Source: an uncultured Christensenella sp. (lineage in GTDB: Bacteria; Bacillota; Clostridia; Christensenellales; UBA1242). From it: a stretch of DNA of 64,000 nucleotides. The stretch lies in contig CASFBJ010000016.1 in NCBI GenBank assembly GCA_949292875.1, positions 31-64,030 of the forward strand. Direction: 5' to 3'. The translations under genes were made by a program, and so were the position numbers. The notes below the pieces were generated by a model. The model saw only the letters and a list, made by a program, of their open reading frames with translations, had not been told where the DNA came from and did no database searches. Of this stretch, positions 52,618 through 63,274 are shown one piece after another. Every line of letters starts with the position of its first letter. Position 1 is the stretch's first letter.

Positions 52618-52728
52618 ATCTAAAAACAAAAATTTAAGTTTTGTATTATAACATTTATGAATAAATTGCAATCTTACACATACATATAAATAGCGCCAAA
52701 AGCGAAACTATGAAAAAAGGTGGAAGAT

Positions 52729-54243
52729 ATGGAGAATATAATATTAAATACTAAAAAACATTTAGGAAGAAAGCAAGTCATATTAGACTGCAAGTTTGGA
52801 ATAGATAACGGAAAAGAAGTAGATAAAATATTATCTGTTCAATCTAAACCCATAATTACAGAAACCAATTGTGTTAATGGTAAAATTAATTATGGCGGAA
52901 AGTTAGATACAAGTTTACTATACTCTACTACAAATGGTGAAAAGATTTCACTAATCGCCGTTTCCGACTTTTCCGAAACTTTTGAAAGTAATGAAATAGA
53001 TGAAGACTCTCTAGCAATAATAGATTGTAAATTAGTAGATATTACTACTCCTTCTATTAAAACAAACGAAGTTAAAGTTGCCTGTATAGTTGATGTAAAT
53101 GTGTGCACAATTTCAAAATCTGAAATAGATACAAATTACGAAAAAGAAAATATAATCATAAAGCAGAGTCAAAATTCTATAACTAGACATTTGTGCGATG
53201 TTGCAGACAACTTTGATATATGCGAAGAAATAAAACTTGAAGATACACTAAACCAAATTTTAAAAATAGATTACAACTTAAGTTTAAAAGATTGCTTTTG
53301 TGGTAACGGATTTCTCGTAGTTGATGCCGAATGTTTTGCTTGCATAACATACGAAGATGAAAATGCTGATACAAAATTTTTTAAAACTCATTTCCCGATA
53401 AAGCAAGAAATAGAATGCCCTAGTTCAACAAGTGAATGCTGTGCAAACATAAATGTCTGTGCTTTGAGTTACATAGCAAAAACAGTCGTAACACAAGCCA
53501 ATAATTACAACTTAATTAAATGCGATATCCCTATTCAAATAAGAGGAAATGTTTACGAAATAGCGGATATTTCATGTGTAGAAGATGCTTATTCAACAAG
53601 TGAAATAATAAGTTGTTCATTTGATTCAGTTAAAGCATTAAAATCAAGTTGTTCACATTTCTACGAAGACACTTGTAAAGGAAATGTACCAATAAAAGAC
53701 AATCTAGAAGATGTAAAAGTTCTAGCACTTCTTAGCTCAAACTGTGAAGTTGCGAACTACACTATAGATGAAGACAAACTAACTATAGAAGGAGTATTAA
53801 GCACTACTATTCTATACTCTACAGGAGCTGAAAACGAAGAAGAGAAAGCTATTATAACACCTGCAATTGCAGAGTTTGGTTTTGTAACTACCACAAACAC
53901 AACTAAGTTAAAAAATTGCACAGACTTAAATGTTCACTGCGGAATAAATGACTTAGACATCAATGTAAAAAATGGAGAGTTTGAAATATTATCTAAACTA
54001 GATTTCTGGATTTTTGGTACTTGCGAAGATGATATAAAAATTTTGAAAAAGGTAGACACTGTTTCTAAAAGACCTAATCCTGACTGTGCTATCCAAATAT
54101 TTTTTGCCGAAAAAAACCAAAACATATGGGAATTAGCTAAAGAAATAGGATTAAGTCAAGAAGAAATACTAAGACAAAATCCTACTTTGCAAGAAAATGT
54201 AGAGCAAGGCACAAAAATAGTTATATATCATAAAGTACACTAA
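52729..54243 (+). CDS. sipL: SipL-like spore coat morphogenetic protein (SPOCS/DUF3794 repeats plus LysM)
   Basis: Three repeats of the type KIL....I...G.L...LLY; C-terminal LysM IWELAK..G...EEILRQNP; upstream CATACATA sigmaE-like -10. Confidence 0.8.
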   Translation: MENIILNTKKHLGRKQVILDCKFGIDNGKEVDKILSVQSKPIITETNCVNGKINYGGKLDTSLLYSTTNGEKISLIAVSDFSETFESNEIDEDSLAIIDCKLVDITTPSIKTNEVKVACIVDVNVCTISKSEIDTNYEKENIIIKQSQNSITRHLCDVADNFDICEEIKLEDTLNQILKIDYNLSLKDCFCGNGFLVVDAECFACITYEDENADTKFFKTHFPIKQEIECPSSTSECCANINVCALSYIAKTVVTQANNYNLIKCDIPIQIRGNVYEIADISCVEDAYSTSEIISCSFDSVKALKSSCSHFYEDTCKGNVPIKDNLEDVKVLALLSSNCEVANYTIDEDKLTIEGVLSTTILYSTGAENEEEKAIITPAIAEFGFVTTTNTTKLKNCTDLNVHCGINDLDINVKNGEFEILSKLDFWIFGTCEDDIKILKKVDTVSKRPNPDCAIQIFFAEKNQNIWELAKEIGLSQEEILRQNPTLQENVEQGTKIVIYHKVH

Positions 54244-55226: not shown

Positions 55227-55562
55227 TTACTTAATTAATGGCACGATTACACCAGCTATAACTAATAGCAAGCAAATCACATACAATACTTTCCAAACCA
55301 TTGGTTTAGCTTTTACATAACGCCAAGCAAGTATAGAAACTATAACTATCATAATAGCTGTTGCCAAAGCTTGTAAAACAGCAACAACTTTTAAGCTTAC
55401 TCCAGCTAGTGCCAATACCATAGAAACAGCATACAAAAAAGCAACCGCAACTATAGTATACATACTAATCTTATTTAAACCCCAAACATTGCTTCTTTTA
55501 GATGAAGACTTAGAACTTGAGCTTGAACTTGAGCTTGACTTATTTGAACTATTATTTGCCAT
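55227..55562 (-). CDS. Small three-TM membrane protein with a Ser-rich N-terminus
   Basis: GGAGG RBS at ATG 55562; TTGACA-18-TATACT promoter. Confidence 0.75.
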   Translation of the reverse strand: MANNSSNKSSSSSSSSSKSSSKRSNVWGLNKISMYTIVAVAFLYAVSMVLALAGVSLKVVAVLQALATAIMIVIVSILAWRYVKAKPMVWKVLYVICLLLVIAGVIVPLIK

Positions 55563-55691
55563 AAAGCACCTCCTTATATATCTACAATTAGTATACCCCT
55601 TATCTATAATATTTGTCAATACCTAAATTACAATTTTCTATATTTTTAGAGTATTTTTTTTGGCGTTTTATCTTTTTTATTTAGGTTATTA

Positions 55692-55953: not shown

Positions 55954-56027
55954 TATTATAATTTTCTTACAATACTAAATCAAACTTTTATCAATTGAAA
56001 AACAATACCACTTAGTTTAAAATAATA

Positions 56028-56081
56028 AAAAAGTTCCTTATTGACTATCTCACTTATAAGCAGTCATTAAAGAACTTTTTT
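56028..56081 (-). terminator. Terminator of the ADH-ALDH-yhhN operon
   Basis: AAAAAGTTC.TTA.TGACT...AGTCATTAAAGAACTTTTT directly after the stop codon. Confidence 0.65.
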
Positions 56082-56083
56082 AA

Positions 56084-56839
56084 CTATTTATCTTCCCTAT
56101 TTTCTTCTTGCTCACTTTCCATTTCTTGTGCTTCAATACTTTCCTTAACTTTATTATCTTCATATGCAATATATATTGAATAAGCCAAAGCAAATTCTGC
56201 TGGATAGTAAAGAGATAGACAAAGCACTTGAGCAAGCATAATTCCACCACCAAAAACATTGAAAAGTAGCATTAAATCAGATAAGAAAAACAGTGTACTA
56301 CCTAAAAATACATATATATTTGTCATAGTTCTCTTTCCAATTAAGTTAGACAAAGCCTTACCTACCATTAAAGATATAACTACAGCGTACAAACAAGCAA
56401 CCACTTCCATAAGCACACTACCATAATCTAAGTTAGGGAAAAATACTACAACAAGTATAGAAGGTATACAAATACAAGCAAAACAAATTGCATCTCTTAA
56501 GCAAAGTTTACTAAGTTTTATGTATGAAATAAAATAGAATATATGAGCAACAGCAAAAAGTACAGCTCCTGTTATAAAATGTATTTCAAGTATGATATCT
56601 CCTAACATTGCAAAAAACAAACCAATACAAATAAGTATTCCAAAAATCATATGAGATTTATCTTTTTTAACAAGTAGGACATATAACAAATTTAGCACTC
56701 CTATAAGCACAAATATTACGCTAGTTACAGCTTTTAAAACCAATAATTCTGTGATTATATATGCTATATCTCCAGCAATAAGCAAAAGGAGCAAAACACT
56801 ATTTATTATATACATATGATTATCATTAATTTTATCCAT
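56084..56839 (-). CDS. YhhN/TMEM86 family lysoplasmalogenase
   Basis: LGDIIL, G..LF.VAH..Y, Y..VI..M, GSTLFFLSD..L, YYPAE; about 8 TM segments. Confidence 0.88.
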   Translation of the reverse strand: MDKINDNHMYIINSVLLLLLIAGDIAYIITELLVLKAVTSVIFVLIGVLNLLYVLLVKKDKSHMIFGILICIGLFFAMLGDIILEIHFITGAVLFAVAHIFYFISYIKLSKLCLRDAICFACICIPSILVVVFFPNLDYGSVLMEVVACLYAVVISLMVGKALSNLIGKRTMTNIYVFLGSTLFFLSDLMLLFNVFGGGIMLAQVLCLSLYYPAEFALAYSIYIAYEDNKVKESIEAQEMESEQEENREDK

Positions 56840-56871
56840 AATTTCACCTCAAAAATTATCTTTTAGTAATG

Positions 56872-58248
56872 TTATTTCATAAACATCTTTATCATTTTAT
56901 CTTTTTTGCTATTATATGGTTGATACCTTATAGGCAAATCTATCCATGTCTTTTTATCTACTATACTCTTATAATGCGTAAATGTGTCAAAACCCACCTT
57001 ACCATGATATGCACCCATTCCACTTTTACCTATGCCACCGAAACCCATTTCATGAGTTGCTATTTGCATTATAGTATCGTTAATACAACCGCCACCAAAT
57101 TTGCAATTTCTAATTACTTTTTGCTCATTTTCTTTTGATGATGAAAATATATACAATGCTAGTGGTGCGTCATTTGCATTGATAAAATTTATAGCTTCAT
57201 CTAATTCGCTAAAAGTTACAACAGGCAAAATAGGACCAAAAATTTCTTCCTTCATACACAAATCATCAAAATTTGCTTGTATAATTGTTGGCTCTATTTT
57301 TAGTCTTTCTTCATCATGTCTGCCACCAAATAAAATGTTATCCTCTTTTAAATGTCTCATAGATAAATCATAACTTTTTTTGTTTACCATTTTACCATAC
57401 AATTCATTATCTATAGGGTCTAAACCATATTGTAAAACTACTTGCCTTTTTACTTCTTTTAATAATTCATCTTTTATGCTTTCATCACAATACAAATAAT
57501 CTGGAGCAACACAAGTTTGACCACAATTCAAAAATTTACCAAAAACTATTCTTTTAGCCGCAAGTTTTAAATCAGCAGTCTTATCTACAATACAAGGACT
57601 TTTTCCTCCCATTTCAAGTGTAACAGGAACAAAATTTTCACTCGCTTTTTCAAGTACAATCTTTCCAACTCTAGTACTACCTGTAAAGAATATATAATCT
57701 ACTTTTTGTTCTAGTAACATTGTACTTTCTTCTACACCACCCAAAACATCATAGACATGCTCTTTTCTAAAAGTTCTTCTTATAAGTTTATCCATAACCC
57801 TTGTAACATTAGGAGAGTGTTCACTAGACCTACATATAACAGTATTGCCGGCAGAAATTGCATCTACTAAAGGTTGCATAGTAAGTAAAAATGGATAGTT
57901 CCAAGGGCTTAGTATAAGCACTACACCATAAGGTGAAGGCTTTACAAAACTTTTTGCACAAAATTGTGCAATAGGAGTTTTCACTCGTTTTTCTTTTGCA
58001 AACTTTTTTATATGTTTAATCATATATCTTATTTCAGACAATACCATTCCTACTTCAGACATATAAGCTTCAGTACTACTTTTACCTAAATCTTTGTACA
58101 GAGCCTCGCAGATTTCATTTTGCATAACCTGTATATTTGTATACAAATTCTTAAGCGAATCTAACCTATAAGATACATCTAATGTTTCTCCGGTTAGAAA
58201 AAAATCTTTTTGCATTGCAACTATGTTTTCTATTTCTTCTCTAGTCAT
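56872..58248 (-). CDS. Aldehyde dehydrogenase, family 3/YwdH (fatty-aldehyde) type
   Basis: PYGVVLILSPWNYPF, FFTGS, LEMGGKSP, NCGQTCVAPDY, EEIFGP, FGG.GKSGMGAYHG. Confidence 0.92.
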   Translation of the reverse strand: MTREEIENIVAMQKDFFLTGETLDVSYRLDSLKNLYTNIQVMQNEICEALYKDLGKSSTEAYMSEVGMVLSEIRYMIKHIKKFAKEKRVKTPIAQFCAKSFVKPSPYGVVLILSPWNYPFLLTMQPLVDAISAGNTVICRSSEHSPNVTRVMDKLIRRTFRKEHVYDVLGGVEESTMLLEQKVDYIFFTGSTRVGKIVLEKASENFVPVTLEMGGKSPCIVDKTADLKLAAKRIVFGKFLNCGQTCVAPDYLYCDESIKDELLKEVKRQVVLQYGLDPIDNELYGKMVNKKSYDLSMRHLKEDNILFGGRHDEERLKIEPTIIQANFDDLCMKEEIFGPILPVVTFSELDEAINFINANDAPLALYIFSSSKENEQKVIRNCKFGGGCINDTIMQIATHEMGFGGIGKSGMGAYHGKVGFDTFTHYKSIVDKKTWIDLPIRYQPYNSKKDKMIKMFMK

Positions 58249-59446
58249 TGCCTTTCACCTCATAATATATTTTCGCAAGTTCTTCTTTACCCCAAAGAAT
58301 AGGAACAGGATATAAAGGATTTGCTTCTTTTTCCGCCTTTTCCGCAAGCTCCGATATATCTTCTTTTTGTATTTGTGGTATATATTTACCTATATTCATA
58401 TATCTTAGCATATCCTCAAGTTTGTAAATGAAAAGTTTTGCACCTTCTTCAAAGCTTACTTCTTCTCCAAAAAGTCCAGCATAAGAACCTAGTTCCCACA
58501 ACTTTTTATATATTGCTCTATCATACTTTTTTAAAACATATGGCAATATGACCGCATTTGTGTAACCATGTGCAAGATTATATTTTCCACTTAATGAATG
58601 AGATATTGCGTGCACATAACCCACATAAGACTTAGTAAAAGCAAGACCAGCCATATAAGATGCTCTAAGCATATTATCTCTTGCTAATAGATTGCTTCCA
58701 TTATCATACGCGTCTAGCAGATTTTCAAAAATAAGTTTTGTAGCCTCTAACGCATTTCCCCTAGTTTCCTTTGTTGTACTTCTTCCTATGTATGCCTCTA
58801 CCGCATGAGTTAAAGCATCTATACCAGTTGAAGCAGTGATACTTTGTGGTAAACCTTCAGTTAATGTAGCATCTAATACAGCATATGAAGGTATAAGATT
58901 GAAATCATTAATAGTGTATTTGTGTCTAGTTTGTGCATCTACTATAACACTCGCAAGTGTAGTTTCACTACCCGTACCTGCAGTTGTAGGCACAGCAATC
59001 AAAAGAGGTAATTTCCTACCAACTTTTAAAAGCCCTTTCATTTTCGTCAAAGTCTTTTTAGGACGAGCAATTCTAGCACCCACAGCCTTAGCACAATCTA
59101 TTGCAGAGCCACCACCAAAACCTATAAGTGCTTCACAACCCTGCTCTATATACATAACTCTAGCATCTTCCACATTATCACTTGTTGGATTAGCAACTGT
59201 ATCATCATAAATACACACTTCAATATTTTGATTAGCCAAACTCTCTTCCATATCTTTTGTGAGTCCCAAACTACTTATTCCTTTATCTGTTACTACCAAA
59301 ACTTTTTTAATATTTTTTTCGTTTAACATACTTGCAAGTTCTTGCATATTTTGCAAAATTTTTGGTTGACTATATGGCAAAATCGGTATAGCCCATTTAA
59401 AAATAGTTTGAAATGTTCTACAATACATTTTTTTAAAAATATTCAT
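58241..59446 (-). CDS. Iron-containing alcohol dehydrogenase
   Basis: GGGSAIDCAK, PTTAGTGSE, DALTHAVE, HAISH, HG. Confidence 0.93.
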   Translation of the reverse strand: MNIFKKMYCRTFQTIFKWAIPILPYSQPKILQNMQELASMLNEKNIKKVLVVTDKGISSLGLTKDMEESLANQNIEVCIYDDTVANPTSDNVEDARVMYIEQGCEALIGFGGGSAIDCAKAVGARIARPKKTLTKMKGLLKVGRKLPLLIAVPTTAGTGSETTLASVIVDAQTRHKYTINDFNLIPSYAVLDATLTEGLPQSITASTGIDALTHAVEAYIGRSTTKETRGNALEATKLIFENLLDAYDNGSNLLARDNMLRASYMAGLAFTKSYVGYVHAISHSLSGKYNLAHGYTNAVILPYVLKKYDRAIYKKLWELGSYAGLFGEEVSFEEGAKLFIYKLEDMLRYMNIGKYIPQIQKEDISELAEKAEKEANPLYPVPILWGKEELAKIYYEVKGND

Positions 59447-59744
59447 ACCCTTCTTTCCCCCAACATTGTAAAATTAACTAAAAATTTTAAATAAATTAAA
59501 ACTAAATTTACTTTTTTCAACTCAAATATAACCTATTGCAAAATATTAAGCAACTATTTAATTAAAATACAATAAGTTTTACAATAAATGTAATATTATT
59601 TACTATAATGACACACTTTATTTACAGCGTTTTAAATTCATTTATTTATTTGATTTATTTAGAGTGTTAAATTAAAAAAAGATTATAGAAAACTATAACC
59701 TTTTTCTATCTATGATTTATCAAAAATAATGCAGATTTATAATA

Positions 59745-62761: not shown

Positions 62762-63274
62762 TTATTCTCTATTATCGTTTATCTCCTGTTTGTTGCATTC
62801 AGTAAACTGTCTTAAAAATTTTTCAAATATTTCTTTATGTTCTTTCTCATCTTCTATAATGCTTCTTATTCTTTCTATATAGTCTTGATTATCTGTCATC
62901 TTAATTAGGTTTTCATAAACTCTAATTGCGTATGCTTCACCTTTTATATTTGCTTGTAAAAATTTCATTATATTTAATTCATAATTTATGTATGTAGAAT
63001 TCCAAGGTCTATTCATATCATTTACTACATAAGGAATAATACCCATATCCACTAATATTTCATTCAAGCTTTTAAAGTGATGCATTTCATCTTCTGCTAT
63101 TTCTATAAGAGCATCTTTTAATGCAGAATATTTTTCACTATTTGGAAGAATAAGAGATTGAAAAGTATAAGTCATTATTGCCGACAATTCACCATTATTT
63201 CCATTTAATGCTGATAATATATTTGAAACAAATCTAGGGTTTTGACCCATTTTTAAAATTTTGTAGTATCGCAT
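62762..63274 (-). CDS. Ferritin-like/Mn-catalase-like protein, probably spore-associated
   Basis: GELSAIMTY.FQ, IAEDEMHH, GE..AI..Y, IIEDEKEH. Confidence 0.8.
   Translation of the reverse strand: MRYYKILKMGQNPRFVSNILSALNGNNGELSAIMTYTFQSLILPNSEKYSALKDALIEIAEDEMHHFKSLNEILVDMGIIPYVVNDMNRPWNSTYINYELNIMKFLQANIKGEAYAIRVYENLIKMTDNQDYIERIRSIIEDEKEHKEIFEKFLRQFTECNKQEINDNRE

Follow-up and report, generated by a model that had tools for sequence, protein, structure and literature searches.

A predicted operon that may turn fatty alcohols and plasmalogen chains into fatty acids in reduced-genome gut Clostridia

A three-gene unit that is probably devoted to lipid salvage lies in a 64,000-nucleotide stretch of DNA (the window) from an uncultured Christensenella sp. 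of the family UBA1242 (assembly GCA_949292875.1, contig CASFBJ010000016.1, positions 31 to 64,030). It encodes an iron-containing alcohol dehydrogenase (Fe-ADH, here ADH), a class-3 aldehyde dehydrogenase (ALDH) and a membrane protein of the YhhN/TMEM86 family (Table 1). On balance, this module is probably a unit that converts fatty alcohols and aldehydes to fatty acids and feeds fatty-acid kinase, with a lysoplasmalogenase acting on foreign plasmalogens as a lineage-specific addition.

The three genes are intact open reading frames on the same strand. The ADH and ALDH genes overlap by 8 bp and a gap of 32 bp separates the ALDH gene from yhhN, as a preliminary description of this DNA had it. 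A Shine-Dalgarno-like site precedes each gene, and the 8-bp overlap is found again in 27 of 42 related three-gene loci. The same description closed the unit with a terminator. There is a strong hairpin 3' of yhhN (-26.2 kcal/mol, z -7.67, with none of 200 shuffles equally stable), but a consensus terminator scan made no call there. Nor did it call a second hairpin (about 59668-59712, -15.3 kcal/mol) that follows the upstream glycyl-tRNA synthetase gene and sets the three-gene unit apart from it. A sigma-70 scan returned 35 sites against 36.5 expected, and hence no promoter excess. Taken together, the overlap, the short gap, the flanking hairpins and the gene fusions described below argue for co-transcription as a predicted operon. 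Each gene is single-copy in the genome. Recent horizontal arrival of the unit was considered, but the GC content at third codon positions (GC3), 0.18-0.20 in all three genes, equals that of the neighbouring genes and gives no signal of it.

Predicted functions of the three proteins

The proteins of the window were scanned against Pfam and NCBIfam profiles at curated cut-offs. YhhN scores 86.3 bits against PF07947 (cut-off 25.6), and both of the aspartate motifs that had been noted earlier are indeed kept (LGD at 79-81, LSD at 186-188). Eight residues (K36, G80, D81, H99, G180, S187, D188, and Y211) are invariant in 61 clade members. They were paired with the list of conserved TMEM86A residues by order, spacing and motif, the human sequence itself not being aligned; alanine at seven of the eight impairs TMEM86A/B (PMC11994398). 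The structure model has eight helices (predicted local distance difference test score 95.9), which is the architecture given for the YhhN family (PMC9052158). When this model was compared with the PDB by Foldseek, no hit reached E <= 0.001 and the only rows, weak ones, resembled rhodopsin or G-protein-coupled receptors; there was no solved YhhN structure for comparison. Lysoplasmalogenase activity is reported for human, Legionella and Mycobacterium tuberculosis YhhN proteins (PMC9052158). The module's YhhN is a predicted lysoplasmalogenase that would act on the vinyl ether of lysoplasmalogens.

The best solved relatives of the ALDH are a Staphylococcus aureus ALDH (6K0Z, E 1e-137) and human fatty aldehyde dehydrogenase (FALDH; 4QGK, E 1e-112). 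Its N117, E212, C246 and E335 align with FALDH Asn112, Glu207, Cys241 and Glu331 (residues from PMC4109017). The alignment with 4QGK stops at residue 450, a matching lysine, and is followed by a 9-residue basic/hydrophobic tail with a hydrophobic moment of only 0.48. By this alignment the tail extends to where the gatekeeper helix, a feature that favours long chains (PMC4109017), lies in FALDH, and it may be a counterpart of that helix. There is no C-terminal transmembrane anchor of the ALDH3A2 type, the protein ending at residue 458. It likely converts fatty aldehyde to fatty acid, the resemblance to FALDH being a claim about how it would work.

The ADH is a type III enzyme with two Pfam domains, a GGGS motif at 111-114 and Asp/His/His/His metal ligands. 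This motif, together with D54, D210, H214, H279 and H293, is invariant in 56 homologues. The NAD and metal motifs are thus intact. An N-terminal extension is amphipathic (hydrophobic moment 0.71, residues 9-19). The protein matches 17 NCBIfam families (FucO, EutG, ErcA, GbsB, AdhE and others) and falls under the cut-off of every one, the best score being 267 against 523 bits. It is likely an NAD-linked long-chain alcohol/aldehyde oxidoreductase of an uncharacterised clade. The identity cuts that define this clade (at least 41%) and that of the ALDH (at least 42%) were chosen after the score gaps had been seen.

Gene content and the proposed pathway

The genome is small (1.04 Mb, 94.8% complete, about 29% GC), as are others of its family (0.8-1.3 Mb). 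Records labelled Ca. Onthoplasma, Ca. Caccovivens and uncultured Clostridia hold close yhhN loci, and Onthoplasma belongs to UBA1242 (Christensenellales), a family reported to be without lipid biosynthesis (PMC12306168). The preliminary description had named fab, fakAB, plsX and plsA/plsR as the genes to look for, and the outcome favours its reading: fab and plasmalogen synthase domains were not found, whereas fakAB, plsX and plsY are present. In profile searches the ketoacyl synthase/FabF domain PF00109 turned up neither here nor in any of 36 family genomes, and this genome has no match to the FabH domain or to acyl-CoA dehydrogenase; a beta-oxidation marker was likewise not found in it. DUF2229, used here as a presumed marker of plasmalogen synthase, is also without a match in this genome and occurs in one of the 36. 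What the genome does have is FakA, five DegV (FakB-type) matches, PlsX, PlsY and GpsA, in addition to GDPD, two patatins and one Hydrolase_4 (alpha/beta hydrolase) protein, the patatins and the hydrolase being unlinked to the module. Because no ketoacyl synthase, FabH or acyl-CoA dehydrogenase was found while FakA, DegV, PlsX and PlsY are present, the bacterium likely imports fatty acids into membrane lipid and cannot burn them. With no plasmalogen synthesis detectable, the substrate of its YhhN would be foreign. This is plausible in the gut because many anaerobes have a high plasmalogen content (PMC9702350).

The proposed pathway would begin with a plasmalogen from the animal host, the diet or a neighbouring anaerobe, which loses its sn-2 acyl chain through a host phospholipase, an unlinked patatin or the alpha/beta hydrolase. 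YhhN, as predicted from its conserved residues, would then split the lysoplasmalogen in the membrane into a fatty aldehyde together with glycerophospho-ethanolamine or -choline. The class-3 ALDH would irreversibly oxidise the aldehyde to fatty acid, which FakA/FakB and then PlsY/PlsX would carry into phospholipid. Mammals, too, use fatty aldehyde dehydrogenase to oxidise the aldehyde that lysoplasmalogenase releases (PMC9471318). The reversible Fe-ADH would turn surplus aldehyde into fatty alcohol, re-oxidising NADH, and would also admit free fatty alcohols. Finally, GDPD would recover glycerol-3-phosphate.

Linkage and gene fusions among relatives

If the three proteins act together, are their genes kept together? 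Species-level genomes gave 211 yhhN loci, and neighbourhoods were counted around the best 80 of these, the ones closest to the query; the other 131 are more distant. In 68 of the 80, yhhN adjoins a module-type ADH and/or ALDH gene (both in 42, ADH only in 18, ALDH only in 8), and in 12 it adjoins neither; a contig end interrupts four of the eight ALDH-only loci and two of the 12 unlinked ones. Clustered at 70% identity, 36 of 43 yhhN clusters are linked. Gene order varies (ADH-ALDH-yhhN, ADH-yhhN, yhhN-ADH, yhhN-ALDH) and the chromosomal setting varies too. Therefore, the conservation next to the ADH-ALDH pair that the preliminary description had proposed to survey does hold within the clade, and goes as far as fusion. 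At the level of the family, all 11 genomes that carry the ADH or the ALDH clade also have a yhhN, against 5 of the 25 that carry neither, although related genomes are not independent and p-values for this co-occurrence are overstated. In the genomes that carry ADH or ALDH, yhhN often stands apart from them and in some cases belongs to a more distant type.

Some loci show other neighbours. An AdhE-like gene lies directly 3' of ADH-yhhN in two loci without class-3 ALDH (L054:1730-4333 and L106:6916-9519). A second, distant yhhN stands beside a Hydrolase_4 gene and an opposite-strand FGGY (glycerol-kinase-like) gene (L040:5123-8212, G015:C14), and TMEM164/YwaF-family genes occur beside or near yhhN (L028:579-1403; L116:7025-7783; L119).

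The most direct link is fusion. All 15 long YhhN homologues are fused to a module-type ADH, two of them also to ALDH. Among long ADH homologues, the best 120 of 274 were classified, giving 29 YhhN-ADH-ALDH proteins (one incomplete), 73 ADH-ALDH, 10 PfkB-ADH and 8 fusions of ADH to aldehyde:ferredoxin oxidoreductase (AOR). YhhN-ADH fusion proteins number 14. The 43 YhhN-bearing fusions keep the catalytic and metal residues that were checked, save for two substitutions and two gaps, the gaps coming from the incomplete entry. One triple-fusion sequence is found on 83 contigs, and fusions were read directly in genomes G015, G188, G544, G588, G559 and G442 (loci L031, L217, L304-L307). An assembly artefact is ruled out by the many clusters and contigs with intact motifs. 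Fusion seems to have happened repeatedly: on an ADH tree of 42 sequences five changes are required to account for the YhhN fusions, strong branches forcing at least three of them, and a single clade of YhhN fusions is weakly rejected by the approximately unbiased test (p-AU 0.04, for a group named after the first tree had been seen).

The 73 ADH-ALDH proteins (P0130-P0245, about 860 residues) form a reverse-order ADH-ALDH3 family distinct from AdhE and BdhE, although some entries nest among the triple fusions and may be shortened gene calls. Because only five proteins of ADH-ALDH order were counted in InterPro in 2022 (PMC12454647), the family looks largely unrecorded; against those five stand the 73 clusters, and 29 more with YhhN in front, in the best 120 of 274. 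AdhE and BdhE resemble these fusions in joining Fe-ADH and ALDH, from adjacent genes, in one chain of about 860 residues (PMC12454647). However, they run ALDH then ADH, whereas the relatives' fusions run ADH then class-3 ALDH and the Christensenella genome has separate genes.

Two further types of fusion were seen. P0214, P0238 and eight others are proteins of about 910 residues in which a membrane domain resembling GtrA (under the cut-off) is joined to a PfkB kinase and a module-type Fe-ADH. In P0219, seven others and L221:4910-8392, a module-type Fe-ADH is fused or adjacent to AOR, which may substitute for ALDH.

Partner genes and a putative regulon

Among the 80 yhhN loci, degV occurs in ten, six of which also have a MarR gene. 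Relatives carry a palindrome, TGTTGA-N4-TCAACA. Of 16 non-redundant MarR genes at the head of the module, 15 have it upstream, as do 11 of 85 ADH-first regions, and shuffles hardly contain it. It also precedes a lone yhhN (L104) and a triple fusion (L304). Often there are two copies over the -35 region (L206-L215, L226, L304, L314, L324, L326, L328, L350, L354). Five genomes picked for having the module hold 11 exact sites against one for a reversed control; six are before the module, two inside genes and three before marR-degV, a patatin gene and a degV-DUF2229-HGD-D-BcrAD operon. Sites are present in 41 of 121 family genomes. Of the 30 family site loci examined, six are before a MarR gene (four with degV), one before degV, two before other genes and 21 inside genes.

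The nearest known parallel is the FabT regulon of streptococci, which has a MarR repressor, a degV member and a ANTTTGATTATCAAATT site (PMC10138225). Likewise, the MarR gene of the relatives heads the module or degV behind a palindrome with TTGA...TCAA arms. In contrast to FabT, the predicted site is spaced one base wider and its targets would be salvage genes; the Christensenella genome is without both regulator and site. The streptococcal-type site TTTGA-N3-TCAAA was also sought upstream of the module, was found before ADH in one locus only, and was dropped. The palindrome and MarR protein thus point to a putative, likely undescribed FabT-like lipid-salvage regulon of gut Clostridia.

Another partner is a Pr6Pr gene directly 3' of yhhN in 13 of the 80 loci (e.g., L041:6671-7345). 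It encodes a membrane protein with invariant Thr43 and His117 that resembles FAR-17a/AIG1 (AIG1/ADTRP) proteins, animal members of which hydrolyse lipid esters via a Thr/His pair (bioRxiv 2022.07.06.498872; PMC8394805). Pr6Pr is by this analogy a candidate sn-2 deacylase, which would be a candidate function for an uncharacterised family. As a required part it was rejected: it was not found in the Christensenella genome, and its five family carriers are mostly yhhN-negative.

The dehydrogenase pair beyond yhhN

Is the whole module one functional unit? Across Clostridia the picture is different from that in the clade. In a class-wide sample of 249 genomes, 21 have the ADH clade, 22 have yhhN over the cut-off and three have both. 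A metagenome scan with the triple fusion found yhhN in 1 of 79 loci, although its patterns derive for the most part from ADH and ALDH sequence and the loci are largely redundant. In an order-wide sample the module's yhhN clade occurs in 9 of 350 genomes. Because of these three counts, the ADH-ALDH pair is, as far as its distribution can tell, a wider clostridial unit that is usually without yhhN and not plasmalogen-specific, with yhhN as a predicted lineage-specific feeder. The pair still looks lipid-linked because a lipid gene (degV, plsY, acyl-ACP thioesterase, psd/pss or a fab-acc operon) lies beside it in 8 of 12 clostridial genomes with ADH-ALDH and because FabF is missing in 12 of 21 carriers of the ADH clade against 17 of 59 controls. 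As a marker of fatty-acid auxotrophs the ADH clade was set aside, since this difference is a trend only (12 of 17 once a post hoc cut on identity is applied).

The plasmalogen-scavenging claim of the preliminary description is thus supported in part: the clade linkage, the fusions and the gene content fit it, but it is too narrow for a pair that usually lacks yhhN and for YhhN joined to ADH alone. Reduction to fatty alcohol is, on the gene patterns, a real branch of the predicted pathway, because yhhN is often linked to ADH alone (18 of 80 loci, 14 fusions) and four of nine family genomes with ADH and yhhN have no ALDH3 match (G007, G009, G019, G034). In those four, fatty-acid gain is therefore impossible unless another enzyme stands in, and the aldehyde would more likely end as alcohol.

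Several further observations weigh against the proposed pathway. Class-wide, yhhN is no commoner in carriers of the ADH clade (3 of 21) than in others (19 of 228, p 0.41), and FabF is present in 9 of the 21. There is no yhhN match in 20 of 36 family genomes, nor in the only genome of the same genus (92% complete). The module must be dispensable, because so many family genomes are without yhhN although none has a FabF match. The linkage is drawn from the closest 80 loci, with the 131 more distant hits outside the count. No characterised member of the ADH clade was found in NCBIfam, among solved structures or in the literature. Class-3 ALDHs are broad: cyanobacterial AldE prefers C8-C12 aldehydes (PMC3594298) and others take benzaldehyde, steroid or carotenoid aldehydes (PMC12410373). 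The Christensenella genome itself lacks Pr6Pr, as noted, and neither the module MarR nor the palindrome was found in it. Single gene absences in this genome are also soft, since it is 94.8% complete.

Competing explanations

The main rival is defence, which we hold to be unlikely while giving it serious weight. Here YhhN would destroy membrane-lytic lysoplasmalogens and the dehydrogenases would only dispose of the toxic aldehyde, mainly as alcohol, with little carbon reaching lipids. A protective role has been proposed for the Legionella and M. tuberculosis YhhN proteins (PMC9052158, PMC9471318), and both the patchiness of the module within the family and the joining of YhhN to ADH where ALDH is not adjacent, or has no match, fit it. 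What does not fit is the company the module keeps. The neighbouring degV/fakB, plsY, acyl-ACP thioesterase and fab-acc genes, and a palindrome shared with degV, tie it to fatty-acid uptake, and free fatty acid from the ALDH would be expected to enter FakAB. Perhaps both are true, as defence may operate alongside nutrition and the roles are not exclusive. Alternatively, the unit might mainly oxidise free long-chain alcohols (plant wax or microbial), with the YhhN clade acting on another lipid or serving as a membrane carrier or anchor. This seems decidedly improbable, even though ADH-ALDH, as a pair or as a fusion, more often occurs without yhhN, the eight ADH-AOR fusions suggest an alcohol-to-acid direction, many source records are, by title, herbivore gut assemblies, and this YhhN shares just 26% identity with another YhhN from the family. 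A protein that only anchors would have no use for eight residues that do not vary in 61 clade members and hardly vary in 43 fusions, and the joining of YhhN to ADH alone, by fusion or adjacency, is understandable only if the aldehyde comes from YhhN.

The two remaining alternatives carry little weight. That the dehydrogenases are a detoxification pair for short-chain or aromatic alcohols and aldehydes, with yhhN linked by ancestry only, is very improbable. The best NCBIfam score of the ALDH is indeed to the benzaldehyde dehydrogenase MdlD (396.6 bits, under the cut-off of 550), and the solved ADHs nearest to the module ADH are methanol, propanediol and ethanol enzymes. However, ancestry alone accounts poorly for repeated fusions, several gene orders, co-occurrence when unlinked, lipid-gene neighbours and a putative regulon. 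Turnover of the cell's own plasmalogens has barely any probability in our estimate. Its appeal lies in G442, where the same palindrome precedes a triple fusion and a degV-DUF2229-HGD-D-BcrAD operon (L325:4306-8097, G442:C8), in which DUF2229, HGD-D-like and BcrAD are separate genes after degV. By its domain make-up this operon resembles a split form of the plasmalogen synthase PlsA/PlsR. Yet DUF2229 has no match in the Christensenella genome, nor in 35 of the 36 genomes of the family, and at the level of the order DUF2229 is in one of eight ADH-clade genomes against 10 of 16 others.

Relation to known systems

The closest known chemistry is the mammalian route from phospholipase A2 via TMEM86A/B (EC 3.3.2.2) to ALDH3A2, in which a YhhN-family enzyme is followed by a class-3 ALDH in the order predicted for the module. 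In contrast, the module is one bacterial predicted operon or polypeptide, it adds an Fe-ADH and its ALDH has no transmembrane anchor. In the absence of any beta-oxidation marker among the genes found, its product would be expected to go to FakAB/PlsXY. Legionella Lpg1991 and M. tuberculosis Rv1401 are, like the module protein, bacterial YhhN in organisms without detectable plasmalogen synthesis. However, both are presented as stand-alone genes of aerobic pathogens whose role is protective, and the excerpts of PMC9052158 mention no operon or aldehyde dehydrogenase; the module YhhN, by contrast, is coupled, and in relatives fused, to two dehydrogenases in anaerobic gut bacteria. Bacterial class-3 ALDHs that act on hydrophobic aldehydes are also known, namely S. 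aureus 6K0Z (4,4'-diaponeurosporen-aldehyde dehydrogenase) and AldE, which converts hexadecanal to fatty acid in vivo (PMC3594298). Their pathways differ from the module (carotenoid synthesis and an acyl-ACP reductase shunt, respectively), and the excerpts describe neither an ADH nor a YhhN partner for them.

What is already known, then, is the mammalian counterpart chemistry and the bacterial YhhN enzymes; what looks new is the predicted operon, the fusions and the putative regulon. None of these three was found described in the open-access full-text literature, judged partly by title and start of abstract, and the same full texts gave no description of the bacterial route of plasmalogen breakdown. 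A bolder synthesis, offered tentatively and somewhat doubtful as a whole, is that reduced-genome gut Clostridia unable to make fatty acids strip ether lipids from the host and from plasmalogen-rich neighbours by means of a dedicated membrane module. In some, a YhhN-ADH-ALDH chain of about 1,100 residues would pass the aldehyde from the bilayer to the dehydrogenase domains, Pr6Pr would supply the lyso substrate and a FabT-like MarR regulon would couple the module to fatty-acid kinase. The ADH-ALDH core would then be a third, reverse-order fusion family turning fatty alcohols into membrane fatty acids in many gut Clostridia.

Why does this matter? Plasmalogens are abundant in gut anaerobes and animal tissue, and the module names candidate enzymes for an anaerobic bacterial sink. 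It suggests a concrete lipid source for uncultured gut Clostridia with genomes of about 1 Mb, and with it a supplement that could be tried in growth media, be it lysoplasmalogen, a fatty aldehyde or a fatty alcohol. A widespread uncharacterised Fe-ADH clade also gains a likely class of substrate, and because two- and three-domain fusions occur naturally, a single gene would be enough to test the whole pathway.

Features of the locus

Table 1. Coordinates of the unit and its flanking elements in the window.
Feature	Position	Strand	Remarks
Fe-ADH	58241-59446	-	401 aa; Pfam PF00465/PF25137 (Fe-ADH + ADH_Fe_C)
Class-3 ALDH	56872-58248	-	458 aa; Pfam Aldedh
YhhN/TMEM86-family membrane protein	56084-56839	-	251 aa; PF07947
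Long AT-rich hairpin 3' of yhhN, likely terminator	~56020-56089	-	Folding energy vs shuffles
Intergenic region upstream of ADH	59447-59744	-	Hairpin after glycyl-tRNA synthetase gene, then AT-rich likely promoter region

Downstream of the unit, an open reading frame of 130 residues (55227-55619, minus strand) has a serine-rich stretch and hydrophobic segments, with no Pfam or NCBIfam match. Sporulation-type genes are also retained in this 1-Mb genome, including one for a SipL/SPOCS protein (52720-54243, plus strand) and one with a ferritin-like Mn-catalase/rubrerythrin match (62762-63274, minus strand).

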